NCBI RefSeq assembly: GCF_044647545.1
Contig: NZ_CP172818.1
Direction: 5' to 3' (one strand)
Length of the DNA: 64,000 bases
Origin: Escherichia coli
Lineage (GTDB): Bacteria > Pseudomonadota > Gammaproteobacteria > Enterobacterales > Enterobacteriaceae
The notes beneath the pieces were generated by a model that saw nothing but the letters and a program-made list of their open reading frames with translations, searched no databases and was not told where the DNA came from. A program made the position numbers and the translations under genes. This document shows positions 1 to 12,423 of this stretch, one piece after another (within the stretch, counting starts at the first letter, position 1; each line of letters opens with the position of its first letter).

Positions 1-317
1 AAACGGTACTCAATAGTATGGACGGCTTTTTTACCCGCTATGGTAAACACACCATTCTGGTATGCCGATTATTGCCTTTTGTCCCTTTCGATCCAATCAG
101 CTATGCTGCCGGTTTGACTTCAATACGTTTTCGCTCGTTTTTTATCGCCACCGGGCTTGGTCAGTTACCGGCAACTATTGTTTATTCCTGGGCGGGCAGC
201 ATGTTAACAGGCGGTACTTTCTGGTTTGTCACCGGACTGTTTATTCTGTTTGCCCTGACCGTGGTGATTTTTATGGCGAAGAAAATATGGCTTGAGCGCC
301 AGAAGAGGAATGCCTGA
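1..317 (+). CDS. ydjZ: TVP38/TMEM64 (DedA-related) inner membrane protein, C-terminal part; gene begins upstream of window
   Basis: Open frame runs from window edge to stop at 315-317; hydrophobic sequence; position immediately upstream of ynjA as in K-12 order. Confidence 0.7.
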   Translation, partial: TVLNSMDGFFTRYGKHTILVCRLLPFVPFDPISYAAGLTSIRFRSFFIATGLGQLPATIVYSWAGSMLTGGTFWFVTGLFILFALTVVIFMAKKIWLERQKRNA

Positions 318-865
318 TGGGTTTACCGCCGCTTAGCAAAATTCCTTTCATTTTACGTCCGCAGGCGTGGCTGCATCGTCGCCATTACGGCGAGGTGCTA
401 AGCCCCATTCGCTGGTGGGGGCGGATCCCGTTTATCTTTTATCTGGTGTCGATGTTTGTCGGCTGGCTGGAGCGCAAACGCTCACCGCTCGATCCGGTAG
501 TGCGATCGCTTGTCAGCGCGCGCATTGCGCAAATGTGCCTGTGTGAGTTTTGCGTGGATATCACCAGTATGAAAGTCGCCGAGCGTACCGGCAGCACCGA
601 TAAACTGCTGGCAGTGGCTGACTGGCGGCAAAGCCCGCTCTTTAGCGATGAAGAACGGCTGGCGCTGGAGTACGCCGAAGCCGCAAGCGTCACACCGCCA
701 ACGGTCGATGATGCCCTGCGTACCCGACTGGCTACCCATTTTGACGCTCAGGCACTCACCGAACTGACGGCATTGATCGGCCTGCAAAATCTGTCAGCCC
801 GTTTTAATTCTGCCATGGACATTCCCGCTCAGGGGCTGTGCCGTATTCCTGACAAACGTTCTTAA
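317..865 (+). CDS. ynjA: AhpD-like / carboxymuconolactone decarboxylase family protein
   Basis: 182 aa ORF; CxxC-containing motif QMCLCEFC; ATG overlaps upstream stop (TGATG); synteny. Confidence 0.85.
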   Translation: MGLPPLSKIPFILRPQAWLHRRHYGEVLSPIRWWGRIPFIFYLVSMFVGWLERKRSPLDPVVRSLVSARIAQMCLCEFCVDITSMKVAERTGSTDKLLAVADWRQSPLFSDEERLALEYAEAASVTPPTVDDALRTRLATHFDAQALTELTALIGLQNLSARFNSAMDIPAQGLCRIPDKRS

Positions 866-874
866 GGAGAGATG

Positions 875-2041
875 ATGCGCCATTGTGTATGGTTGCTGGG
901 ATTGTTATCGCTGTTTTCTTTGGCAACACATGCCAGTGACTGGCAGGAAATTAAAAATGAGGCCAAAGGGCAAACCGTCTGGTTTAACGCCTGGGGCGGC
1001 GATACCGCAATTAACCGCTATCTCGACTGGGTTAGCGGCGAGATGAAAACCCATTACGCTATAAACCTGAAGATTGTTCGTCTCGCGGATGCCGCAGACG
1101 CGGTGAAGCGCATTCAGACCGAAGCTGCTGCCGGACGCAAAACAGGCGGTTCGGTGGATCTGCTCTGGGTGAACGGCGAAAACTTCCGCACCTTAAAAGA
1201 GGCCAATTTATTACAAACGGGCTGGGCGGAGACTCTGCCCAACTGGCGCTATGTCGACACACAGCTTCCGGTGCGGGAAGATTTTTCAGTGCCTACAGAA
1301 GGGGCTGAATCGCCCTGGGGCGGCGCACAACTGACGTTTATCGCCCGCCGCGATGTTACGCCACAGCCACCACAAACGCCGCAAGCCTTACTGGAGTTTG
1401 CTAAAGCCAATCCCGGCACGGTTACCTATCCGCGCCCACCGGACTTTACTGGCACCGCATTTCTTGAACAGTTACTGATTATGCTGACGCCAGATCCCGC
1501 AGCATTAAAAGAAGCACCGGACGATGCGACTTTCGCCCGTGTCACTACGCCCTTGTGGCAATATCTTGATGCACTGCATCCGTATTTGTGGCGCGAAGGA
1601 AAAGATTTCCCGCCTTCACCCGCGCGGATGGATGCGCTGCTGAAAGCTAACACATTGCGCCTGTCGCTGACCTTTAACCCTGCACATGCGCAGCAAAAAA
1701 TCGCCAGCGGCGATTTGCCTGCAAGCAGTTACAGTTTTGGTTTTCGCGAGGGGATGATTGGCAACGTCCATTTCGTCACCATTCCTGCCAACGCGAATGC
1801 CAGTGCTGCGGCGAAGGTAGTTGCCAATTTCTTGCTCTCACCCGATGCGCAACTGCGTAAAGCAGATCCCGCTGTCTGGGGCGATCCTTCTGTTCTCGAT
1901 CCGCAAAAACTGCCTGACGGGCAGCGCGAATCCTTGCAATCAAGAATGCCGCAAGATCTGCCGCCGGTACTGGCTGAACCGCACGCAGGTTGGGTAAATG
2001 CGCTGGAACAAGAATGGCTACACCGTTACGGTACGCATTAA
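875..2041 (+). CDS. ynjB: ABC transporter periplasmic substrate-binding protein
   Basis: 388 aa from second ATG; N-terminal signal peptide; SD aaggagag at 864-871; synteny. Confidence 0.85.
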   Translation: MRHCVWLLGLLSLFSLATHASDWQEIKNEAKGQTVWFNAWGGDTAINRYLDWVSGEMKTHYAINLKIVRLADAADAVKRIQTEAAAGRKTGGSVDLLWVNGENFRTLKEANLLQTGWAETLPNWRYVDTQLPVREDFSVPTEGAESPWGGAQLTFIARRDVTPQPPQTPQALLEFAKANPGTVTYPRPPDFTGTAFLEQLLIMLTPDPAALKEAPDDATFARVTTPLWQYLDALHPYLWREGKDFPPSPARMDALLKANTLRLSLTFNPAHAQQKIASGDLPASSYSFGFREGMIGNVHFVTIPANANASAAAKVVANFLLSPDAQLRKADPAVWGDPSVLDPQKLPDGQRESLQSRMPQDLPPVLAEPHAGWVNALEQEWLHRYGTH

Positions 2042-3549
2042 TCTTTTTGCTGTGGGCGATGGTGGCGGTGATTTATGCACCGCTGATCCCGGCAACTCTC
2101 ACGCTGATATCGCCTGCTTTATCGTTGACACACTGGCAGGCGTTATTTGCCGATCCACAGTTACCGCAGGCATTACTGGCAACGCTGGTGTCGACAACCA
2201 TCGCGGCGGTCGGGGCGTTGTTGATTGCCTTGCTGGTGATTGTGGCGCTGTGGCCTGGGCCGAAATGGCAGCGTATGTGCGCCCGTCTGCCGTGGCTGCT
2301 CGCCATTCCCCATGTGGCTTTTGCCTCCAGCGCCCTTCTGCTCTTTGCTGACGGAGGGCTGCTTTATGACTATTTCCCGTATTTCACTCCGCCAATGGAC
2401 AAATTGGGTATTGGGCTGGGCCTCACCCTGGCGGTGAAAGAAAGCGCATTTCTGCTGTGGATCTTAGCGGCAGTATTGAGCGAAAAACGGCTGTTGCAGC
2501 AAGTTATTGTGCTGGATTCACTGGGCTACAGCCGCTGGCAATGTTTGAAGTGGCTGCTTTTGCCCTCTGTCGCGCCTGCGCTGGCAATGGCGATGCTGGC
2601 GATTGTAGCCTGGTCGCTGTCGGTCGTGGATGTGGCGATTACCCTTGGGCCAGGTAATCCCCCGACGCTGGCAGTAATTAGCTGGCAGTGGTTAACTCAG
2701 GGCGACGCCGATCAACAAACGAAAGGCGCACTCGCCAGCCTGCTGCTGATGCTGTTACTCGCCGCCTACGTTTTGCTGGGCTATCTGCTATGGCGTAGCT
2801 GGCGGCGTACTATTCCCCGCGTAGATGGCGTTCGTAAGCCTGCCACGCCTTTATTGCCAGGCATTACGCTGGCGAGTTTTTTACCCTTAACCGGTGTGCT
2901 GTGTGTGGTTCTGCTGGCGATCCTCGCGGATCAGTCGACGATCAATAGTGAAGCGCTCATCAACAGCCTGACAATGGGGCTGGTGGCGACATTCATCGCT
3001 TTGCTCCTGTTACTGCTGTGGCTGGAATGGGGGCCACAGCGTCGCCAGTTGTGGCTATGGTTGCCCATTTTATTACCCGCTCTGCCACTGGTGGCGGGCC
3101 AGTACACGCTGGCGCTATGGCTGAACCTGGATGGAAGCTGGACGGCGGTGGTCTGGGGGCATCTGCTGTGGGTAATGCCGTGGATGCTGTTTATCCTGCA
3201 ACCCGCCTGGCAGCGCATTGATTCACGGTTAATTTTGATTGCGCAAACACTGGGCTGGTCGCGGGCCAAAATCTTCTTTTACGTAAAATGCCCACTCATG
3301 TTGCGCCCTGCGCTGATTGCCTTCGCGGTGGGATTTTCAGTCAGTATTGCGCAGTATATGCCGACGCTGTGGCTGGGCGCGGGGCGTTTTCCGACGCTCA
3401 CCACTGAAGCGGTGGCATTAAGCAGCGGCGGCAGCAACGGTATTCTCGCCGCCCAGGCTTTATGGCAACTGCTGTTACCGCTTATTATTTTTGCCCTGAC
3501 CGCGTTAGTCGCAAAATGGGTAGGTTATGTCAGACAAGGACTCCGCTAA
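2014..3549 (+). CDS. ynjC: ABC transporter permease (two fused transmembrane domains)
   Basis: 511 aa from ATG at 2014; highly hydrophobic, multi-TM; synteny. Confidence 0.85.
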   Translation: MATPLRYALIFLLWAMVAVIYAPLIPATLTLISPALSLTHWQALFADPQLPQALLATLVSTTIAAVGALLIALLVIVALWPGPKWQRMCARLPWLLAIPHVAFASSALLLFADGGLLYDYFPYFTPPMDKLGIGLGLTLAVKESAFLLWILAAVLSEKRLLQQVIVLDSLGYSRWQCLKWLLLPSVAPALAMAMLAIVAWSLSVVDVAITLGPGNPPTLAVISWQWLTQGDADQQTKGALASLLLMLLLAAYVLLGYLLWRSWRRTIPRVDGVRKPATPLLPGITLASFLPLTGVLCVVLLAILADQSTINSEALINSLTMGLVATFIALLLLLLWLEWGPQRRQLWLWLPILLPALPLVAGQYTLALWLNLDGSWTAVVWGHLLWVMPWMLFILQPAWQRIDSRLILIAQTLGWSRAKIFFYVKCPLMLRPALIAFAVGFSVSIAQYMPTLWLGAGRFPTLTTEAVALSSGGSNGILAAQALWQLLLPLIIFALTALVAKWVGYVRQGLR

Positions 3550-4202
3550 TGCTCTGCGTGAAAAATGTTTCGCTACGTTTACCAGAAAGCCGCTTGCTGA
3601 CAAACGTTAACTTTACGGTGGATAAAGGTGACATTGTCACGTTAATGGGGCCGTCTGGCTGTGGAAAATCTACACTGTTTTCATGGATGATTGGTGCGCT
3701 GGCCGGACAGTTTTCTTGTACAGGTGAGCTATGGCTCAATGAGCAACGGATTGACATGCTACCCACCGCAGAGCGTCAGATTGGCATTCTTTTCCAGGAT
3801 GCACTGTTATTTGACCAGTTCAGCGTCGGGCAAAATTTACTGCTGGCTCTGCCAGCGGCACTCAAAGGTGTTGCAAGGCGCGATGCGGTAAATGATGCGC
3901 TGGAGCGTGCGGGGCTTGGCGGTATGTTCCATCAGGATCCTGCCACTTTGTCTGGCGGTCAGCGAGCGCGCGTTGCTCTGCTGCGCGCCCTTCTCGCTCA
4001 GCCAAAAGCGTTGCTACTGGATGAGCCATTCAGCCGTCTTGATGTGGCTCTGCGCGATAATTTTCGCCAGTGGGTGTTCAGCGAAGTTCACGCCCTGGCG
4101 ATCCCCGTCGTTCAGGTAACGCACGATCTCCAGGATGTTCCTGCTGATAGTTCTGTTCTGGATATGGCGCAGTGGTCAGAAAATTACAACAAACTGCGAT
4201 AA
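3549..4202 (+). CDS. ynjD: ABC transporter ATP-binding protein
   Basis: Walker A GPSGCGKST and ABC signature LSGGQRARV; TAATG stop/start overlap with ynjC. Confidence 0.9.
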   Translation: MLCVKNVSLRLPESRLLTNVNFTVDKGDIVTLMGPSGCGKSTLFSWMIGALAGQFSCTGELWLNEQRIDMLPTAERQIGILFQDALLFDQFSVGQNLLLALPAALKGVARRDAVNDALERAGLGGMFHQDPATLSGGQRARVALLRALLAQPKALLLDEPFSRLDVALRDNFRQWVFSEVHALAIPVVQVTHDLQDVPADSSVLDMAQWSENYNKLR

Positions 4203-4268
4203 CGCAAAGTTTTTCTCAATGCGTCAGTTCAGAATGGCGCACTCAAAACTACAATGTCGGGATTTTCG

Positions 4269-5576
4269 ATGAAACGTGTTTCTCAAATGACCGCGCTGGC
4301 AATGGCTTTAGGGCTGGCTTGCGCTTCTTCGTGGGCCGCTGAACTGGCGAAGCCTCTTACACTTGACCAGCTTCAACAACAAAATGGCAAAGCGATAGAT
4401 ACTCGCCCCAGCGCGTTTTATAACGGCTGGCCACAAACCTTAAATGGCCCTTCTGGTCATGAACCTGCCGCCTTAAACCTCTCTGCCAGCTGGCTCGACA
4501 AAATGAGCACCGAACAGCTCAACGCGTGGATCAAGCAACATAACCTGAAAGCCGATGCTCCGGTGGCGCTGTACGGTAATGACAAAGATGTCGACGCCGT
4601 CAAAACGCGACTGCAAAAAGCAGGTTTTACGCATATCTCCATTCTGAGTGACGCGCTAAGCGAACCTTCCCGTCTGCAAAAACTGCCGCATTTTGAGCAG
4701 CTGGTTTATCCGCAATGGCTGCACGACCTGCAACAAGGTAAAGAGGTTACGGCGAAACCTGCCGGTGACTGGAAAGTCATTGAAGCGGCCTGGGGCGCTC
4801 CTAAGCTTTACCTTATCAGCCATATTCCCGGCGCTGACTACATCGATACCAACGAAGTGGAAAGCGAACCGCTGTGGAACAAAGTTTCTGATGAACAACT
4901 GAAAGCGATGCTGGCAAAACACGGCATTCGCCATGACACCACGGTCATTCTGTACGGGCGTGACGTATACGCTGCAGCGCGTGTGGCACAAATTATGCTC
5001 TACGCTGGCGTGAAAGATGTCCGCCTGCTGGACGGCGGCTGGCAAACCTGGTCCGACGCGGGACTGCCCGTTGAGCGCGGAACGCCACCGAAAGTGAAAA
5101 CGGAACCGGATTTCGGCGTGAAGATCCCGGCACAACCGCAACTGATGCTTGATATGGAACAGGCGCGTGGACTGCTGCATCGCCAGGACGCCTCGCTGGT
5201 GAGTATTCGTTCGTGGCCGGAGTTTATCGGTACGACCAGTGGTTACAGCTATATTAAACCAAAAGGTGAAATAGCCGGAGCACGTTGGGGACACGCTGGT
5301 AGCGACTCGACGCATATGGAAGATTTCCATAACCCGGATGGCACCATGCGCAGCGCCGATGATATTACGGCTATGTGGAAAGCATGGAATATCAGACCAG
5401 ATCAGCAAGTTTCATTCTACTGCGGCACCGGCTGGCGCGCGTCCGAAACCTTTATGTACGCACGAGCAATGGGCTGGAATAACGTCTCCGTTTACGACGG
5501 CGGCTGGTACGAATGGAGCAGCGATCCAAAAAATCCGGTAGCAACCGGTGAACGCGGCCCGGACAGCAGCAAATAA
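4269..5576 (+). CDS. ynjE: periplasmic multi-domain rhodanese (thiosulfate sulfurtransferase)
   Basis: Signal peptide; rhodanese active-site loop CGTGWRAS near C-terminus; 435 aa. Confidence 0.9.
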   Translation: MKRVSQMTALAMALGLACASSWAAELAKPLTLDQLQQQNGKAIDTRPSAFYNGWPQTLNGPSGHEPAALNLSASWLDKMSTEQLNAWIKQHNLKADAPVALYGNDKDVDAVKTRLQKAGFTHISILSDALSEPSRLQKLPHFEQLVYPQWLHDLQQGKEVTAKPAGDWKVIEAAWGAPKLYLISHIPGADYIDTNEVESEPLWNKVSDEQLKAMLAKHGIRHDTTVILYGRDVYAAARVAQIMLYAGVKDVRLLDGGWQTWSDAGLPVERGTPPKVKTEPDFGVKIPAQPQLMLDMEQARGLLHRQDASLVSIRSWPEFIGTTSGYSYIKPKGEIAGARWGHAGSDSTHMEDFHNPDGTMRSADDITAMWKAWNIRPDQQVSFYCGTGWRASETFMYARAMGWNNVSVYDGGWYEWSSDPKNPVATGERGPDSSK

Positions 5577-5584
5577 CATTGCAA

Positions 5585-6205
5585 TTACTGACGCTGGAGC
5601 GACTTCAGCGTCAGATACCCACTCCACACCCGCGTAAAGGTCGTCATCCAGCACAACGCACCAAATACCCACGCAAACCACGGAAAACAGGCCGGAAAGA
5701 GGCAACTCAGAACAAACAGCAAAATCGTCTCGCTGCCTTCGGTTAACCCGCCCAGATAATAAAACGATTTATGCGCATAACCAGGATTATCAATCTGATG
5801 TTTCGCCGCCAGCGCAGCAAAAGCGAGAAAACTGCTGCCCGTGCCGATAAACGCAAACAGCAGCCAGCCGCCTGCCAGCGCATTTTGCTCCGGTGCAGCA
5901 AGAATAAAACCAAACGGCACCAGCGCGTAAAAGAGAAAATCGAGAGAAATATCGAGAAAGCCGCCCGCGTCGGTAAGCCCTCTGCGCCGCGCCAGCGCAC
6001 CGTCCAGACCATCAAGCAGCCTGTTCAACAAAATGGCGACTAGCGCCGCCAGATACCAGCCCAGCGCCAGAAAAGGCAGTGCCAGCACGCCGATGGCAAA
6101 TCCCACTAATGTTAAACCATCTGGCGTAATGCCCGGTTTATCAAGAACCCGCACGCACTGATGCAACAACGGTTTAATCCGGGGATGAAGATGGCGGTCT
6201 AGCAC
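5585..6205 (-). CDS. ynjF: CDP-alcohol phosphatidyltransferase family membrane protein
   Basis: Motif DGLDGALARRRG...D...D matching the CDP-alcohol phosphatidyltransferase signature; start taken at second GTG to match the 206 aa K-12 length. Confidence 0.8.
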   Translation of the reverse strand: MLDRHLHPRIKPLLHQCVRVLDKPGITPDGLTLVGFAIGVLALPFLALGWYLAALVAILLNRLLDGLDGALARRRGLTDAGGFLDISLDFLFYALVPFGFILAAPEQNALAGGWLLFAFIGTGSSFLAFAALAAKHQIDNPGYAHKSFYYLGGLTEGSETILLFVLSCLFPACFPWFAWVFGALCWMTTFTRVWSGYLTLKSLQRQ

Positions 6206-6291
6206 AGGCACTCCTTAAATATAAAGCCTTTCTGATTGAGCAACAGTGCGGATATTATGGCATTTTTCGCTTATCTGCCCGTGTGTAATTT

Positions 6292-6699
6292 ATGAAAATG
6301 ATTGAAGTTGTTGCCGCCATCATCGAACGTGATGGCAAAATTTTACTCGCGCAACGCCCTGCCCATAGCGATCAGGCGGGATTATGGGAGTTTGCCGGTG
6401 GTAAAGTCGAGCCGGATGAAAGCCAGCGGCAGGCGCTGGTGCGTGAGTTACGCGAAGAACTGGGCATCGAAGCAGCTGTGAGTGAATATGTTGCCAGCCA
6501 TCAGCGAGAAGTTTCGGGGCGGATTATCCATCTTCATGCCTGGCACGTACCCGACTTCCACGGGACGTTACAGGCACATGAACATCAGGCGCTGGTCTGG
6601 TGCTCACCTGAAGAGGCGCTGCAATATCCGCTGGCCCCTGCTGACATTCCACTATTAGAGGCGTTTATGGCTTTACGCGCCGCCAGACCAGCGGATTAG
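6292..6699 (+). CDS. nudG: Nudix CTP / 5-methyl-dCTP pyrophosphohydrolase
   Basis: 135 aa; Nudix box GGKVEPDESQRQALVRELREELGI. Confidence 0.9.
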   Translation: MKMIEVVAAIIERDGKILLAQRPAHSDQAGLWEFAGGKVEPDESQRQALVRELREELGIEAAVSEYVASHQREVSGRIIHLHAWHVPDFHGTLQAHEHQALVWCSPEEALQYPLAPADIPLLEAFMALRAARPAD

Positions 6700-8570: not shown

Positions 8571-10547
8571 TTATATTATCACTCCATTAAGAAGAAAATC
8601 GCCCCGCCCCCGACCTCTTCTGATGGCGGGCTTTTTTTCGGCGCTCTCTTGCGTGGCGAATCCTTTTTCTTCCCCTTCTCCACCGCCGGGAGCCATTATT
8701 CCCCGAAACTGCCTTACCGACGTGCGCTTTGCCTGATCAATCAACTGGTACAATGTCCCCACCAGCGGCTGCATAAAGTCCTGGTAGCGACACTGCTTTT
8801 CGCTGATTTGCGTCAGCACCGATTCCCAGTGCGCGGTCATGTCCGGTCGCGTCGCCATTTCTGGCAGCGAATGGAATAGCGCTTTTCCGGCGTCGGTGGA
8901 GTGGATATAGCGCCCTTTTTTGGTCAGGAAACCACGCTTGAACAACAGTTCAATAATCCCGGCACGGGTTGCTTCTGTCCCCAGACCATCGGTCGCACGA
9001 AGGATCTTTTTCAGATCTTTGTCCTGCACAAAGCGTGCGATCCCGGTCATCGCCGAAAGCAGTGTTGCATCGGTAAAATGGCGCGGCGGCTGGGTTTGCC
9101 GCTCTACCACTTCACCTTTTTCGCACAACAATTCATCGCCTTTCGCCACCACAGGCAGCGGCATGCCGTCGTTTTCTTCATCGCGCTCTTTGCTGCCTAA
9201 CAGCGTGCGCCAGCCTGCTTCAGCAAGAAAACGGGCTTTAGCGACAAATTTGCCTTTGGCAATGTCCAGTTCGATAACACACTTGCGGAACACCGCATCC
9301 GGGCAGAACTGCATCAAGTACTGACGGGCAATCAGGTTATAGACCTTCGCTTCGTTCTCCGTCAGGTTGATCGCAGAACTCCGTGCGGTCGGAATGATGG
9401 CGTGGTGCGCATCGACCTTTTTGTCATCCCAACAGCGGTTGCGTATATCTGGATCTACCACTGGCTGCGGCAACAGATCCGGTGCATGAACGCTGATAGC
9501 ATTCATCACCGCGTGGCGTCCGGCAAAATGTTCTTCTGGCAAATAGCGGCAATCGGAACGCGGATAAGTGATTAGCTTGTGCGTTTCGTACAGCTTCTGG
9601 CAGATATCAAGCACGTTCTGCGCGCTCAGACCAAAACGTTTAGCCGCTTCAATCTGCAACGCCGAAAGCGAAAAAGGAAGCGGCGCGGATTCTGATTCCC
9701 GTTTATCGTTATAGCTGGTGACAATAGCTGGTTGACCACTAATGCGGTTAACCACATGCTCCGCCAGTGGACGATGTAACAAGCGCCCTTCTTCATCCTG
9801 GTACGGTTCACACGCTTCGCTCGGTTGCCAGATAGCGGTAAACCGCTCATCGGCAGGTGTCACGATATGTGCTTTGACTTCAAAGAAATCTTTCGCCACG
9901 AAGTTTTCAATCTCTTCGTCGCGGCGCACCACCAGTCCGAGTACGGGCGTCTGCACGCGTCCCACGGAAAGTACGCCCTGATAACCGGCATTGCGACCGA
10001 GAATGGTGTAAGCGCGGGTCATATTGATGCCGTACAGCCAGTCAGCTCGGGCTCGCGCCAGTGCAGAAACGCACAGCGGTACAAACTCGCTATTGGAGCG
10101 AAGACGATCGATCGCCCGCTCAACCGCCTGCGGGTTCAGGTCGTTTATCAAACAACGCTGTACCTGCTGGCGCTTTTCCGGTGCCAGTTGCAGGTAGTCC
10201 AGCACTTCATCCACCAGCAGTTGCCCTTCGCGATCCGGGTCTCCGGCGTGAACGATTTCGCTGGCTTCATGCAGGAAGCGTTTGATGACATTAAGTTGTT
10301 TAGTCACGGAGGGTCGGGGCTGTAATTGCCACTTTTCCGGGACAATTGGCAAATCCGCAAGATTCCAGCGCGCATAGCGGCTGTCGTAGGCGTCTGGCTG
10401 CGCCTGCTCAAGCAGGTGACCGATACACCAGGTCACCACCTGACCATTACCGCACTCGATAAAGCCATCGCCTTTCCGGTGCGGTTTAGGCAGGACATCA
10501 GCAATGGCGCGCGCCAGACTCGGTTTTTCGGCAATAAACAACCGCAT
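8571..10547 (-). CDS. topB: DNA topoisomerase III
   Basis: Starts [16 protein letters not shown] (Toprim); about 658 aa versus the recalled 653 aa K-12 length; the C-terminal 21 codons are encoded by a GC hairpin plus T-run sequence. Confidence 0.9.
8600..8639 (+). terminator. candidate gdhA terminator lying inside the topB 3' coding end
   Basis: GC-rich cccgcc...ggcggg pairing followed by T7 on the plus strand, 85 nt after gdhA stop. Confidence 0.4.
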
Positions 10548-10551
10548 TGAA

Positions 10552-11595
10552 TTAACGGATCTCAACCATGGCACGACCGCCGCGCGCTGGCACCAGTTCG
10601 CCAATCGCCGTCAGTTCAATGCCAAACTCGGCGGCTGTAGCTTTGACCTCATTTTCTGCTTCCGGCATGACCGCCAGCAGCAAACCGCCAGAAGTTTGCG
10701 GATCGCACAGCAGATCGCGCACTTCACGCGGCATTTCACCCATCAGATGACCGTAGCTGGCAAAGTTACGTTCGGTGCCGCCAGGCACTGCGCCCAACTT
10801 AATGTACTCTTCAACCCCAGGCAATTTCGGGATCGCGTCATAGTCGACGCGCGCCTGCACACCTGCGCCCTGACACATTTCGCTTAAATGCCCCAGCAAA
10901 CCAAAACCCGTAACGTCTGTCATCGCTTTTACGCCTTCGATGTTGGCAAAGGACGCGCCTGCGATGTTCATCCGGCACATCACTTCCGTCGCCAATCCCT
11001 GATGTTCTGGTTTAAGCAGTGATTTTTTCTCAGCCGTGGTAAGAACGCCAATCCCCAGCGGTTTCGTCAGGAACAGTTTGCATCCGGCTTGTGCGGTACT
11101 GTTTTTCTTCACCCGCTCGGTCGGTACGATCCCCGTTACCGCCAGACCAAAAATCGGCTCCGGCGCATCGATGGAGTGACCGCCAGCCAGCGCAATACCC
11201 GCCTGACGGCATGCATAGCGTCCACCTTCGGTCACTTCGCGGGCAATTTCCGGGGAAAGTTTGTTAATCGGCCAGCCGAGGATCGCAATCGCCATAATCG
11301 GTTTGCCGCCCATTGCGAAGATATCGCTGATGGCGTTAGTCGCCGCAATGCGGCCAAAATCGAAAGGATTATCAACGATCGGCATAAAGAAGTCGGTGGT
11401 ACTGATAACGCTGGTGCCATTGCCCAGATCGTACACCGCCGCATCGTCGCGGGTTTCATTACCCACAAGCAAATTCGGATCAACAAACTTCGCCTGCTCA
11501 CTGTGCAGGATGGTTTCCAACACTTTTGGGGAAATTTTACAGCCGCAACCAGCGCCGTGGCTGTATTGGGTCAAACGAATCGAGTTCTCGCTCAT
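10552..11595 (-). CDS. selD: selenide, water dikinase (selenophosphate synthetase)
   Basis: N-terminus [23 protein letters not shown]; 347 aa; 4 nt gap to topB start. Confidence 0.95.
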
Positions 11596-11711
11596 GGACA
11601 TCTCCTGTCAATGCAATCCGGGTATGGTAACCCTCATTCCATGAAGTGATAAGTGAGAGTGTCTGAATTCCTGCGCCTTTGCTCACAATCCAGACAGTTT
11701 CGCGACAATTA

Positions 11712-12263
11712 TCAGAAATAAGTCACAAACGGCGTCGGGTCCGGGACGTTTATCGACGTAGATGCTTTCAACTGCGGCGTACCGAGGTAGAGAAAACCGA
11801 CAATTTTATCCTGCTCACGGCAACCGAATGCTTCACGCACTACCGGACTTTCAGTTAATGCACCACTGCGCCAGATGCCGCCAAACCCCTGGGCAACTGC
11901 TGCCATTTGCATCGCCATGACCGCGCATCCCGCAGACATTTCCTGTTCCCAGCGCGGGACTTTATGATTTTCTTCGCATTTCGCCACCACCGTTATGATG
12001 AGCGGTGCGCGGAACGGCGCATTACGCGCTTTGTCGATGGCTTTGTTATCACTACCGGCAGCAATCGCCCCCTGCTCCAGTACAGCGCTGAAACGCTCGC
12101 GCCCTTCCCCTTCAATTACAAAGAAATGCCACGGTTGCATGGACTTATGGTCCGGCGCACGCATACCCGCACGCAGGATGTTTTGCAGTTGTTCACCCGT
12201 TGGCGCGGGTTCAGCCAGGCGGGAGGCGCTACGGCGATTGATCAATAGTTCGAGTGCATCCAT
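11712..12263 (-). CDS. ydjA: NAD(P)H nitroreductase
   Basis: 183 aa from [13 protein letters not shown]; nitroreductase fold family. Confidence 0.9.
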
Positions 12264-12423
12264 TTGATTAACTCCTGTCATGATATTTATTCACAAAATT
12301 AACACGAGAGTGGATTTTGTTACAGCCCAGTCCGCAATTCCTGCTGACAAGTGCCGGTTGGGTCATTACGATAACCACATCTATTGCGCCTGAGACAGGT
12401 GTGACCTTAAGTTGGGAGAATAC

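Follow-up and report, generated by a model that had tools for sequence, protein, structure and literature searches.

The window analysed here, a stretch of 64,000 nt, is part of the Escherichia coli chromosome, and the genes at its start are, with near certainty, ydjXYZ-ynjABCD, ynjE and ynjF of this species (Table 1), a locus present in 5413 of 5426 complete E. coli genomes. Direct reading of the sequence confirmed all ynjABCDEF genes, overlaps and motifs, and the gene calls are identical in the RefSeq annotation of a 100% identical E. coli genome; a chance origin is excluded by the long ORFs, the Pfam domains scoring above threshold and the conservation across genomes. The ynj locus itself was already known, while the conserved module around YnjBCD and YnjF reported below appears to be undescribed. 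Two start/stop overlaps had been read in the first-pass annotation as coupling ynjA through ynjD. TAATG does join ynjC to ynjD, but TGATG, although real, joins ydjZ to ynjA, and the operon therefore begins upstream, as ydjXYZ-ynjABCD, with the rest of ydjZ and the operon start (ydjX and ydjY) lying upstream of the window. Two details had been missed: the 28-nt overlap of ynjB and ynjC (2014-2041), and the separation of ynjA from ynjB, which do not overlap, by a 9-nt spacer containing GGAG. The convergence of ynjE and ynjF stood, since ynjF is on the minus strand and the two stop codons are 8 nt apart. Located 4.3 kb past ynjF, selD is a possibly associated neighbour outside the finding proper.

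Table 1. Features of the ydjZ-ynjF region and selD, with positions in the window
Feature	Position	Strand	Description	Evidence
ydjZ 3' end	1-317	+	COG0398 DedA / TVP38-TMEM64 membrane protein	ORF 18-317; Pfam VTT 54.9 bits; RefSeq ydjZ
TGATG junction	315-319	+	ydjZ stop TGA overlapping ynjA start ATG	Sequence and annotation
ynjA	317-865	+	AhpD-like (CMD family) protein	Pfam CMD 36.7 bits
ynjB	875-2041	+	Periplasmic substrate-binding protein, cluster D fold	NF008633 560 bits; Pfam SBP_bac_8
ynjC	2014-3549	+	Fused double permease	Pfam BPD_transp_1 in C-terminal half
TAATG junction	3547-3551	+	ynjC stop overlapping ynjD start	Direct sequence reading
ynjD	3549-4202	+	Short ABC ATPase, 217 aa, without C-terminal regulatory domain	Pfam ABC_tran 104 bits
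ynjD-ynjE spacer	4203-4268	+	Region of reported separate FNR-dependent ynjE promoter	
ynjE	4269-5576	+	Secreted three-domain rhodanese	Three Pfam Rhodanese domains
ynjF	5585-6205	-	Six-helix CDP-alcohol phosphatidyltransferase family enzyme	Pfam PF01066 42.4 bits
selD	10552-11601	-	Selenide, water dikinase	Window ORF; RefSeq annotation

The proposal that the tightly packed ynjA to ynjD are co-transcribed agrees with FNR ChIP and RNA-seq, by which ydjXYZ-ynjABCD is transcribed as one unit from an FNR-activated promoter and ynjE is activated by FNR separately, with a site at -41.5 of its own promoter (PMC3688515). The former unit includes ydjX and ydjZ, the two DedA genes at its upstream end. 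An FNR-like box, TTGAGaaaaATCAA, was found upstream of ydjX; a consensus scan of the ynjD-ynjE spacer did not recover a good one. A single anaerobic iModulon holds ydjXYZ-ynjABCD, ynjE, yedEF and yjiLM (PMC7888660).

YnjB, YnjC and YnjD almost certainly form a binding-protein-dependent ABC importer that is induced anaerobically by FNR. YnjB has a signal peptide (...SLATHA/SD), and the structure prediction suggested as a check in the first pass (AF2 model, pLDDT 95) bears out a cluster D binding-protein fold, matching PhnS, PotD, FbpA and TbpA; by fold and profile comparison, the ligands of its nearest relatives differ widely (2-aminoethylphosphonate, polyamines, iron, sugar phosphates and thiamine). 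The protein shows strong conservation, has many Trp, Asp, Glu and Asn residues and is closest to proteins that bind polyamines and opines; with this composition and kinship, its pocket looks more like one for an organic ligand than for a bare oxyanion. The N- and C-terminal halves of YnjC are homologous (hhalign probability 96.8%, E 2e-10), and YnjD carries the Walker A, signature and Walker B motifs, its nearest NCBIfam models (PhnT2, CysA and ThiQ) all falling below their cut-offs. In line with the first-pass annotation, no substrate assignment for YnjBCD was found in the literature searched. Across 12 aligned members of the YnjA family, a CxFC motif and the cysteine of a C-terminal QG[LF]C never vary. 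In Citrobacter, Enterobacter and Kluyvera, ynjF is immediately preceded by a YnjA-like gene, and in Photobacterium and two metagenomic loci such a gene lies upstream of the DedA fusion.

The most conserved partner of ynjBCD is ynjF and not the rhodanese gene. Earlier regarded as no more than a neighbour, ynjF comes immediately after ynjD, and on its strand, in 35 of the 51 non-enteric loci with ynjD (gaps of -19 to +116 nt), across Beta-, Gamma- and Deltaproteobacteria-type lineages, and lies upstream in four further non-enteric ynjBCD loci. Seen from the other side, ynjBCD is present in 37 of the 47 metagenomic ynjF loci that were informative, and ynjBCD and/or DedA in 39/47. The coupling is not obligatory, since ynjF is missing from 12/51 ynjBCD loci, mostly of marine and soil Alphaproteobacteria, and the transporter from 8/47 ynjF loci. 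Genome-context comparison, as the first-pass annotation had recommended, brought out a conserved ynjBCD context, but one centred on ynjF and with no YnjE link outside Enterobacteriaceae. YnjA-like CxxC proteins, rhodaneses, SelD and a flavoprotein family otherwise fused to SelD recur as well, and so do YdjX/YdjZ-type DedA proteins, which frequently form a fusion with an NAD(P)H disulfide reductase. DedA or its fusion to the flavoprotein disulfide reductase occurs in at least 19 genome loci and in 32 loci overall; COG0398 DedA proteins are predicted phospholipid scramblases and, where fused, are most often joined to this oxidoreductase (bioRxiv 10.1101/2023.01.04.522824). The TIGR03169 'N-terminal-to-SelD' flavoprotein is present in 10 genome and 7 metagenome loci, and SelD or PNDR::SelD fusions adjoin the module in 7 non-enteric loci, recurring in Burkholderiales genomes and metagenomic loci; redox and selenium partners are found in part of the loci only, and these counts overstate independent events because many loci are from related Burkholderiales. 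The ynjF-selD distance seen in the window is that of enterics. The clusters of two Vibrio species also hold a secreted rhodanese, an Hdr-like FeS flavoprotein and a CCG protein.

YnjF is, as had been assigned, a member of the CDP-alcohol phosphatidyltransferase family, with the complete eight-residue motif (D65xxD68G69xxA72R73x7G81xxxD85xxxD89) and a fold nearest to PIP synthases, AF2299 and DIPPS. Phosphatidylinositol-phosphate and archaetidylinositol-phosphate synthases and DIPP synthase (6H59, 5D92, 6WM5, 4MND, 4O6M) share its six-helix fold and the full D1xxD2G1xxAR...G2xxxD3xxxD4 motif and are its best profile and structural matches, at 21-24% identity, but YnjF scores far below the inositol-lipid synthase family cut-offs (60.7 against 180 bits and 40.4 against 170 bits) and is set apart from these enzymes by two membrane cysteines, C168 and C185, that are invariant in the family alignment. 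One stand-alone ynjF orthologue lies inside a psd-pssA-ynjF lipid operon. Kinship to enzymes using inositol-1-phosphate fits poorly with an amine-type binding protein, and to our knowledge E. coli has no inositol-1-phosphate synthase.

We propose, with a probability of about 0.4, that the module is induced anaerobically and imports a small solute, with YnjF joining this solute, or a derivative of it, to CDP-diacylglycerol and DedA redistributing the product, and that thiol and selenium redox helpers link the module to sulfur or selenium handling. The first-pass annotation had instead suggested that periplasmic sulfur-transfer chemistry of YnjE feeds the transporter; on that model, YnjE would make a persulfide- or thiosulfate-derived compound that YnjBCD then imports. 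Its description of YnjE as a secreted rhodanese with an intact CGTGWR loop held good: the protein has a signal peptide (MKRVSQMTALAMALGLACASSWA/AE), three domains and the catalytic Cys385 in the loop C385-G-T-G-W-R390, and, a few strain differences aside, is identical to the protein solved in 3IPO and 2WLR. After these, the next best match is EanB (300 bits, full length, about 40% identity), the anaerobic ergothioneine sulfurtransferase (6KTV, 6H98) that forms C-S bonds from polysulfide, and such kinship favours the feeding model: YnjE aligns with it across all three rhodanese-like domains, shares the FYCGTGWR loop and an SGY(S/N)Y tyrosine matching EanB Tyr353, and keeps the Tyr411-Cys412 equivalents, although YnjE is secreted, has Thr at the position of EanB Tyr375 and, in contrast to EanB, has no hercynine pathway partner near its gene. 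Also in its favour are the adjacency of the genes in Enterobacteriaceae, their common FNR activation and iModulon, and the secreted rhodanese clustered with the module in the two Vibrio species. However, these two are the only ones of 64 non-enteric loci with a rhodanese, and theirs is another, two-domain protein of weak similarity to YnjE. A YnjE homologue is linked to ynjBCD in Enterobacteriaceae only, where ynjE, which has a separate promoter, appears to have been inserted between ynjD and ynjF, the latter being inverted. Moreover, the purified protein is almost inactive towards both thiosulfate and 3-mercaptopyruvate (PMC10215317), and Moco-dependent phenotypes are normal in the ynjE deletion (PMC3831636). 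YnjE is an addition peculiar to Enterobacteriaceae, under a promoter of its own, and not the core partner; that it feeds the transporter is very unlikely.

That YnjBCD imports an ordinary nutrient, be it thiamine-related, polyamine-like or aminophosphonate-like in keeping with KEGG-style labels, and that ynjE and ynjF of E. coli are functionally unrelated to it, is distinctly improbable as well. The type I importers ThiBPQ, PotABCD/PotFGHI and PhnSTUV are the best fold and profile neighbours of YnjBCD (TbpA, PotD and PhnS in the case of YnjB) and likewise consist of a secreted cluster D binding protein, a BPD_transp_1 permease and a short ATPase; ThiP and PhnU2 are fused double permeases as YnjC is, a combination with a short ATPase also seen in ThiBPQ, weak profile matches reach ThiQ, PhnT2 and PhnU2, and JGI labels some homologues 'putative thiamine transport system'. 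Yet identity is only 12-18%, YnjB has its own subfamily model (NF008633), and the substrate-specific NCBIfam models, those of the ThiQ/PhnT2/PhnU2 type included, all score far below their cut-offs. In contrast to that group, no Rfam element, TPP riboswitch included, is found in the 18.7 kb around the ynj locus. Genes of thiamine, polyamine or phosphonate metabolism are not recurrent in ynj neighbourhoods. We know of none of these importers that is operonic with a CDP-alcohol phosphatidyltransferase and DedA, as ynjBCD is, and we reckon the two-way ynjF linkage to be beyond coincidence. The same linkage makes us regard as unlikely a system for selenium or sulfane-sulfur acquisition, which would leave YnjF, the tightest partner, unexplained: YnjBCD would be a high-affinity importer of selenite or organic selenium, the cytoplasmic disulfide reductases, YnjA and the rhodanese would convert it to selenide for SelD, in supply of the anaerobic formate-dehydrogenase selenoproteins, and YnjF and DedA would be merely auxiliary at the membrane. 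It agrees with the presence, in the operons of Rhizobiales, Deefgea, Hydrogenophaga and Limnohabitans, of the TIGR03169 flavoprotein that is a SelD fusion partner elsewhere, with the PNDR::SelD fusions and SelU-like rhodanese protein adjoining the module in two loci (L090 and L138), with selD in the window and with FNR control, as expected for anaerobic selenoproteins. Within the FNR/ArcA-dependent iModulon, the ynj operon is co-expressed with YedE/YedF, a YeeE/YedE-family sulfur/selenium transporter and a TusA-like protein that comparative genomics ties to selenium metabolism (PMC5322559), and the iModulon study put forward a part in the use of molybdenum and selenium (PMC7888660); another article mentions an unidentified specific selenite carrier in E. 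coli (PMC2744661). YedE/YedF are of an unrelated family, encoded elsewhere on the chromosome, and cysteine-dependent, unlike YnjBCD. Against the acquisition of selenium or sulfane sulfur, YnjB, YnjC and YnjD have no conserved cysteines, the YnjB pocket looks like that of an organic-ligand binder, and SelD proximity is limited to a minority of phylogenetically clustered loci.

Returning to import followed by coupling to CDP-diacylglycerol, the conserved functional unit would be YnjBCD, YnjF and YdjX/YdjZ-type DedA, aided by thiol-redox proteins. The structure of the genes, their domains and motifs, the regulation as published and the linkage in both directions are established; from them we infer, by guilt by association for every step beyond 'ABC importer', that flow runs from the transporter towards YnjF and that the product is a lipid, as well as the part played by DedA and the sulfur/selenium link. 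YnjB would capture a small polar periplasmic solute, probably organic and amine-, polyol- or sugar-like, possibly bearing sulfur or selenium, which YnjC and YnjD would import. At the inner membrane face, YnjF would move phosphatidyl from CDP-diacylglycerol to a hydroxyl of the solute or of a reduced or phosphorylated derivative, yielding a minor head-group phospholipid that the DedA proteins, as predicted scramblases, would spread across the bilayer. NAD(P)H disulfide reductases, YnjA (AhpD-like, CxxC) and rhodaneses may keep a sulfur or selenium group reduced, be it in the solute or lipid or at the two invariant cysteines of YnjF, and would tie the module to the anaerobic sulfur/selenium economy, as yedEF co-expression and selD proximity suggest. 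Against this, we know of no report of an extra phospholipid class from E. coli.

Head-group import followed by condensation has a precedent in phosphatidylcholine synthase (Pcs), which condenses choline imported by ChoXWV with CDP-diacylglycerol. Here the imported alcohol would similarly join CDP-diacylglycerol directly, through a small CDP-alcohol phosphatidyltransferase, so that no cytidylyltransferase would be needed, and none recurs across ynj neighbourhoods. YnjF is not Pcs, given its fold, and neither Pcs nor PgsA models are among the four NCBIfam families matching it at E <= 0.001; the ynj system also differs in having transporter and synthase in one operon and redox partners. The DedA::reductase fusions beside ynjBCDF recall MerT/MerP-MerA, in which the substrate goes from a membrane entry protein to a class I flavoprotein disulfide reductase. 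They carry the GGxCxNxGC redox-active disulfide and the HxxPTxSE interface motif of such reductases, but have neither the C-terminal cysteine pair nor the NmerA domain and score 355 bits against the 454-bit MerA cut-off, and E. coli differs from this logic in having unfused DedA proteins and an AhpD-like protein instead. The constant partnership of the transporter with YnjF, together with DedA and sulfur/selenium redox proteins, gives a concrete route by which the function of the system can be tested.

It can be considered secure that YnjBCD is an ABC importer under FNR activation, that its conserved partners are YnjF and DedA proteins of COG0398, and that its thiol/selenium redox helpers are variable. 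The importer is one of the orphans of the best-studied bacterium, and the grouping of YnjBCD, YnjF and the COG0398 DedA proteins in one conserved module, which is induced in the absence of oxygen and has links to redox enzymes for thiols and selenium, brings three separate "y-gene" problems into a single testable hypothesis. If the lipid or selenium link is true, E. coli physiology in the gut would gain either a membrane lipid pathway that is new or a route of selenium uptake that has been missing. The module is composed solely of known families and the ynj locus has long been known; in the literature searched, we found no description of the ynjBCD-ynjF-DedA(::reductase) module, in which DedA::reductase denotes a fusion protein, or of its selenium-linked neighbors.

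The RefSeq gene order is ydjZ (3' end), ynjA, ynjB, ynjC, ynjD, ynjE, ynjF, nudG, ynjH, gdhA, topB and selD. Several E. coli chromosomes are 100% identical to the first 6.7 kb of the window, and the locus is present in 5413 of 5426 complete E. coli genomes (at least 80% coverage). All the features listed in the first-pass annotation, such as the rhodanese loop of YnjE and the inverted ynjF with its phosphatidyltransferase motif, were borne out by the ORFs and the raw sequence. The TGATG that it took as a sign of translational coupling from ynjA through ynjD is indeed present, and it joins the ydjZ stop to the ynjA start, which places ynjA inside a longer operon. There is no overlap between ynjA and ynjB, which are separated by a 9-nt gap containing GGAG, while 28 nt are common to ynjB and ynjC, and a TAATG joins ynjC to ynjD. 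The nudG gene, divergent from ynjF across an 86-bp spacer, encodes an enzyme whose substrate and product (CTP and CMP) belong to the nucleotide side of CDP-alcohol chemistry, and its pairing with ynjF is found in enterics only (13 loci). The 3' ends of nudG and ynjH overlap by 35 nt, and this pair is a convergent excludon candidate according to a published list (PMC12288877). In a simple scan, 29 terminator-like hairpins were counted in the first 7200 nt of the window, against 9.4 +/- 3.5 in shuffled sequences, and most of them lie within coding sequence. In one ENA contig, a gene call of 574 aa (P0002) combines CMD and SBP_bac_8 domains, with 98% identity to YnjB; this apparent ynjA-ynjB fusion is probably a frameshift or gene-calling artefact.

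Features of the ynj locus and of selected homologous loci (positions refer to the window or, where a locus is named, to that locus)
Feature	Position	Strand	Assignment	Source
YdjZ			VTT / DedA	Pfam + NCBIfam
ydjZ stop/ynjA start (TGATG)	315-319			raw sequence
YnjA			CMD / AhpD-like	Pfam + NCBIfam
YnjB			SBP_bac_8 + own subfamily model NF008633	Pfam + NCBIfam
YnjC			BPD_transp_1	Pfam + NCBIfam
ynjC-ynjD junction (TAATG)	3547-3551			raw sequence
YnjD			ABC_tran	Pfam + NCBIfam
YnjE			three rhodanese domains	Pfam + NCBIfam
YnjF		minus	CDP-OH_P_transf	Pfam + NCBIfam
ynjF-nudG spacer and nudG	6206-6699	plus	CTP pyrophosphohydrolase	
nudG/ynjH 3' overlap	6665-6699	plus/minus		
topB, selD, ydjA	8571-12281	minus	just past the ynj locus	
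APH-family phosphotransferase gene	L023 847-1908		directly 5' of ynjB	
psd-pssA-ynjF operon	L100 1711-4016		stand-alone ynjF orthologue	
Vibrio rhodanese, FeS and CCG genes	L079 5350-9664		directly 5' of dedA-ynjBCDF	

The linkage of the importer to ynjF was approached from both sides, with gene calls in foreign loci made from crude ORF calls and tblastn, and the resulting counts include related genomes, kinship being ignored. On the YnjB side, an alignment of 11 closer sequences, used with one genome per species, yielded 80 loci, among which Enterobacteriaceae keep the E. coli arrangement and the other loci have no YnjE homologue. A ynjF orthologue (46-63% identity) lies on the same strand, from -19 to +116 nt of the ynjD end, in 35 of the 51 loci with ynjD, including those of Deefgea, Rhodoferax, Hydrogenophaga, Limnohabitans, Methylobacillus, Vibrio, Photobacterium, Salinivibrio, an Oceanospirillaceae genome and Desulfosediminicola. 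Four Rhizobiales loci have ynjF some kilobases 5' of ynjB; in Pseudorhizobium and Rhizobium the two genes point the same way, in Aureimonas they lie on opposite strands. From 12 of the 51, mostly in Alphaproteobacteria, ynjF is missing. On the YnjF side, a metagenome scan with the YnjF alignment gave another 80 loci, 47 of them flanked on either side by at least 700 nt; ynjBCD was found in 37 of these 47, in the orders B-C-D-F, F-B-C-D or divergent, and ynjBCD and/or DedA beside ynjF in 39. Taken together, the two counts make the linkage a two-way one that extends across several proteobacterial classes; the enteric ynjE has the look of a gene inserted between ynjD and a ynjF in inverted orientation. 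One of the eight exceptions (locus L100) has a stand-alone ynjF orthologue in an operon with psd, for phosphatidylserine decarboxylase, and a pssA of the CDP-alcohol type, an arrangement that supports a putative role of YnjF in phospholipid synthesis.

YnjF matches PF01066 at 42.4 bits (cut-off 22) and carries the motif D1xxD2G1xxAR...G2xxxD3xxxD4 over helices 2-3 of a six-helix core. Residues D65, D68, G69, A72, R73, G81, D85 and D89 are invariant among 22 family members, and the family alignment adds K146, Y149, E156, E159, T160, C168, C185 and R192. Two invariant membrane cysteines are unusual in the CDP-alcohol phosphatidyltransferase family, and those of YnjF are compatible with redox partners. 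The AF2 model (pLDDT 83) matches the structures of PIP synthases, AF2299 and DIPP synthase, and by both profile and model YnjF is clearly more distant from PgsA and choline phosphotransferase than from these three. It falls under the curated cut-offs of every named family; a PIP or archaetidylinositol-phosphate synthase identity was not supported, at 60.7 vs 180 bits for NF040950 and 40.4 vs 170 bits for NF045883. YnjF and PgsA are the only two E. coli enzymes known in this family, and the literature searched contained no YnjF enzymology and no assigned product.

The transporter itself has the make-up of a type I, binding-protein-dependent ABC importer: genes for a secreted binding protein, for a BPD_transp_1 permease and for an ABC ATPase stand side by side. 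YnjB has a signal peptide and, besides SBP_bac_8, matches NF008633 at 560 bits; YnjC is an internally duplicated double permease, its N-terminal half aligning with the C-terminal one in hhalign at 96.8% (E 2e-10); and YnjD scores 104 bits against ABC_tran and displays the motifs GPSGCGKST, LSGGQ and LLLDEP. We found no substrate assignment for YnjBCD in the literature searched, and its COG annotation is that of an uncharacterised transport system (PMC9207381). A sequence search of the PDB returned no relative of YnjB, so that its neighbors come from profile and fold searches. The AF2 model (pLDDT 95) is that of a cluster D binding protein, whose top structural match is PhnS/STM0429 (TM 0.82), followed by PotD, FbpA/FutA, AfuA and TbpA, all at 12-18% identity; with the family profile, the nearest proteins are the polyamine binders Lmo0810, SpuD/E, PotD and PotF and an agropine binder (E 1e-7 to 1e-6), and all substrate-specific NCBIfam models remain far under threshold. 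Approximately 110 of the 388 positions are at least 90% conserved in 62 homologues, and because these are rich in Trp, Asp, Glu, Asn and His and include no Cys, they suggest that the ligand may be a defined organic molecule rather than a bare oxyanion. Conserved cysteines, as would serve a YeeE-like sulfur relay, were sought in YnjB, YnjC and YnjD and none was found. As for ThiBPQ and thiamine, ThiQ scored 130 bits vs a cut-off of 245, ThiB and sfuA scored no higher than 18.5 bits among homologues of YnjB and left E. coli YnjB unmatched even at E up to 10, and an Rfam search of 18.7 kb around the locus returned no hit at all, whether a TPP riboswitch or any other.

The DedA partner is represented in the window by the YdjZ fragment, whose VTT domain scores 54.9 bits and places it in the DedA superfamily; RefSeq assigns both YdjX and YdjZ to the TVP38/TMEM64 family, and YdjZ is the COG0398 example in a survey which argued that these DedAs scramble phospholipids and do not flip undecaprenyl phosphate (10.1101/2023.01.04.522824). 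Scores against UptA-type flippase models were far under the cut-offs. In 19 genome loci, and in 32 loci overall, a YdjX/YdjZ-type DedA is fused to a class I flavoprotein disulfide reductase with GGDCLNYGC (approximately 720 residues), for which the best models are Lpd, MerA and GR, all under cut-off; this DedA::reductase is the commonest COG0398 fusion and had already been noted in the same survey (10.1101/2023.01.04.522824). Seventeen loci contain the "N-terminal-to-SelD" flavoprotein TIGR03169 (366 bits vs a cut-off of 310), found after ynjD in three Rhizobium-type loci and before the DedA fusion in Deefgea. Seven non-enteric loci, mostly of Burkholderiales with kinship ignored, have SelD or a PNDR::SelD fusion (721-789 residues) next to the module, and one of the seven also has a SelU-like rhodanese protein. 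The same neighbor is found in 12 enteric loci, the distance between selD and ynjF in the window being 4.3 kb. SelD and its fusions recur near the module in Burkholderiales genomes and metagenomic loci.

The thiol partners are more diverse. YnjA falls in the redox-active branch of the AhpD-like/carboxymuconolactone decarboxylase superfamily (CMD 36.7 bits, cut-off 23; 101 vs 310 bits for the YciW-related model, under its cut-off), and YnjA-like proteins share an invariant CxFC and a third invariant Cys. In Photobacterium and in two metagenomic loci, a gene of this type lies 5' of the DedA fusion; Citrobacter, Enterobacter and Kluyvera have one directly 5' of ynjF and in the same orientation. 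Two Vibrio species, V. rotiferianus and V. mexicanus (L079 and L059), encode three further proteins directly 5' of dedA-ynjBCDF: a rhodanese that is secreted and has two domains, an FeS flavoprotein of 598 aa with Fer4_20 and Pyr_redox_2 domains, and a CCG-domain (HdrB-like) protein. Taken as a group, the three resemble a heterodisulfide-reductase-like set. A secreted DUF3047 protein follows ynjF in 17 loci; its equation with the E. coli lipoprotein YdjY was rejected, as the two have no similarity.

Regulation ties much of the locus to anaerobiosis. The ydjXYZ-ynjABCD operon is directly activated by FNR from a site at -60.5, and ynjE is activated separately and directly from a site at -41.5 (PMC3688515). 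Outside the window, upstream of ydjX, we located an FNR box with one mismatch, TTGAGaaaaATCAA; a consensus scan of the ynjD-ynjE spacer allowing up to two mismatches returned no box, so for the ynjE site we rely on the published work (PMC3688515). Independent component analysis of E. coli transcriptomes groups ydjXYZ-ynjABCD, ynjE, yedEF and yjiLM in an uncharacterised, anaerobically active iModulon, for which the authors proposed a role in molybdenum and selenium usage (PMC7888660). In addition, ynjABCD is weakly induced by BaeR overexpression (PMC2731931), and ynjE-ynjF is among the convergent pairs with overlapping transcription (PMC12288877).

YnjE has three Rhodanese domains and the CX4R loop C385GTGWR390, and its sequence matches the solved structures 3IPO and 2WLR. 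Its next PDB match is EanB, at 300 bits over the full length. EanB is a polysulfide-dependent enzyme that forms the C-S bond of ergothioneine, and the residues by which it can be compared are the catalytic Cys, Tyr353, Tyr375 and Tyr411. Both proteins have the FYCGTGWR loop and equivalents of Tyr353 and Tyr411-Cys412, although YnjE, unlike EanB, has Thr at the Tyr375 equivalent. Given the likeness in the loop and at Tyr353, the chemistry of YnjE could be wider than the shuttling of sulfur. The protein showed no apparent thiosulfate:GSH activity and poor 3-mercaptopyruvate activity (PMC10215317), and a ynjE deletion had normal chlorate and hydroxylaminopurine phenotypes (PMC3831636).

We tentatively favor, with a probability of roughly 0.4, a pathway in which solute import is followed by coupling through YnjF and redistribution by DedA, assisted by sulfur/selenium redox helpers. 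A small solute would be imported, YnjF would join it or a derivative to CDP-diacylglycerol, the resulting lipid would be redistributed by DedA, and the reductase, the AhpD-like protein and the rhodanese would act on a sulfur- or selenium-containing group. When all neighboring ORFs were clustered, none of the enzymes that could pin down the chemistry (a cytidylyltransferase, a kinase or a phosphatase) proved recurrent, and CDP-diacylglycerol is favored as the donor because no cytidylyltransferase recurs nearby. A much more specific proposal, which we regard as a long shot, is that the YnjF product is a new phospholipid whose head group bears a thiol, selenol or other redox-active chalcogen and derives from the YnjBCD solute; DedA would carry this lipid from one face of the inner membrane to the other, and its recycling would fall to the dedicated NAD(P)H disulfide reductase, the AhpD-like protein and the rhodanese, so that it would serve as a membrane-anchored sulfur/selenium carrier for anaerobic selenoprotein or sulfur-cofactor synthesis.

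The main rival, itself unlikely, is a selenium acquisition route feeding SelD, which accounts for the regulation and the SelD-related partners but leaves YnjF unexplained. A plain nutrient importer with unrelated neighbors fits the data more poorly, and we consider it improbable. The same poorer fit applies to the proposal of the first-pass annotation that the rhodanese YnjE feeds the transporter, which appears very improbable; outside enterics, nothing links YnjE chemistry to the importer.

Homologues of YnjB also occur in other settings. Five loci (L030, L036, L049, L071 and L073) have lone homologues with approximately 50% identity and neither ynjC nor ynjD within 10 kb; these genes adjoin M16 peptidase genes in the Burkholderiales/Comamonadaceae loci, as they do in Hafnia, with ftsY near in L036, and they could encode orphan binding proteins, or else paralogues that serve a different function. 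A kinase-like gene of the APH phosphotransferase family is found directly 5' of ynjB in L023 and in L028 (Comamonadaceae); in L035, from Rhodoferax, it lies downstream of ynjD and faces the other way. Its product could act on the imported solute by phosphorylation. A distant YnjB-like subfamily with 35% identity (P0187, in locus L083) has two separate permeases, and the locus also encodes an inosine-uridine nucleoside hydrolase and an ADP-ribosylglycohydrolase, so that the ligand of this branch may be of a nucleoside or ribose type.
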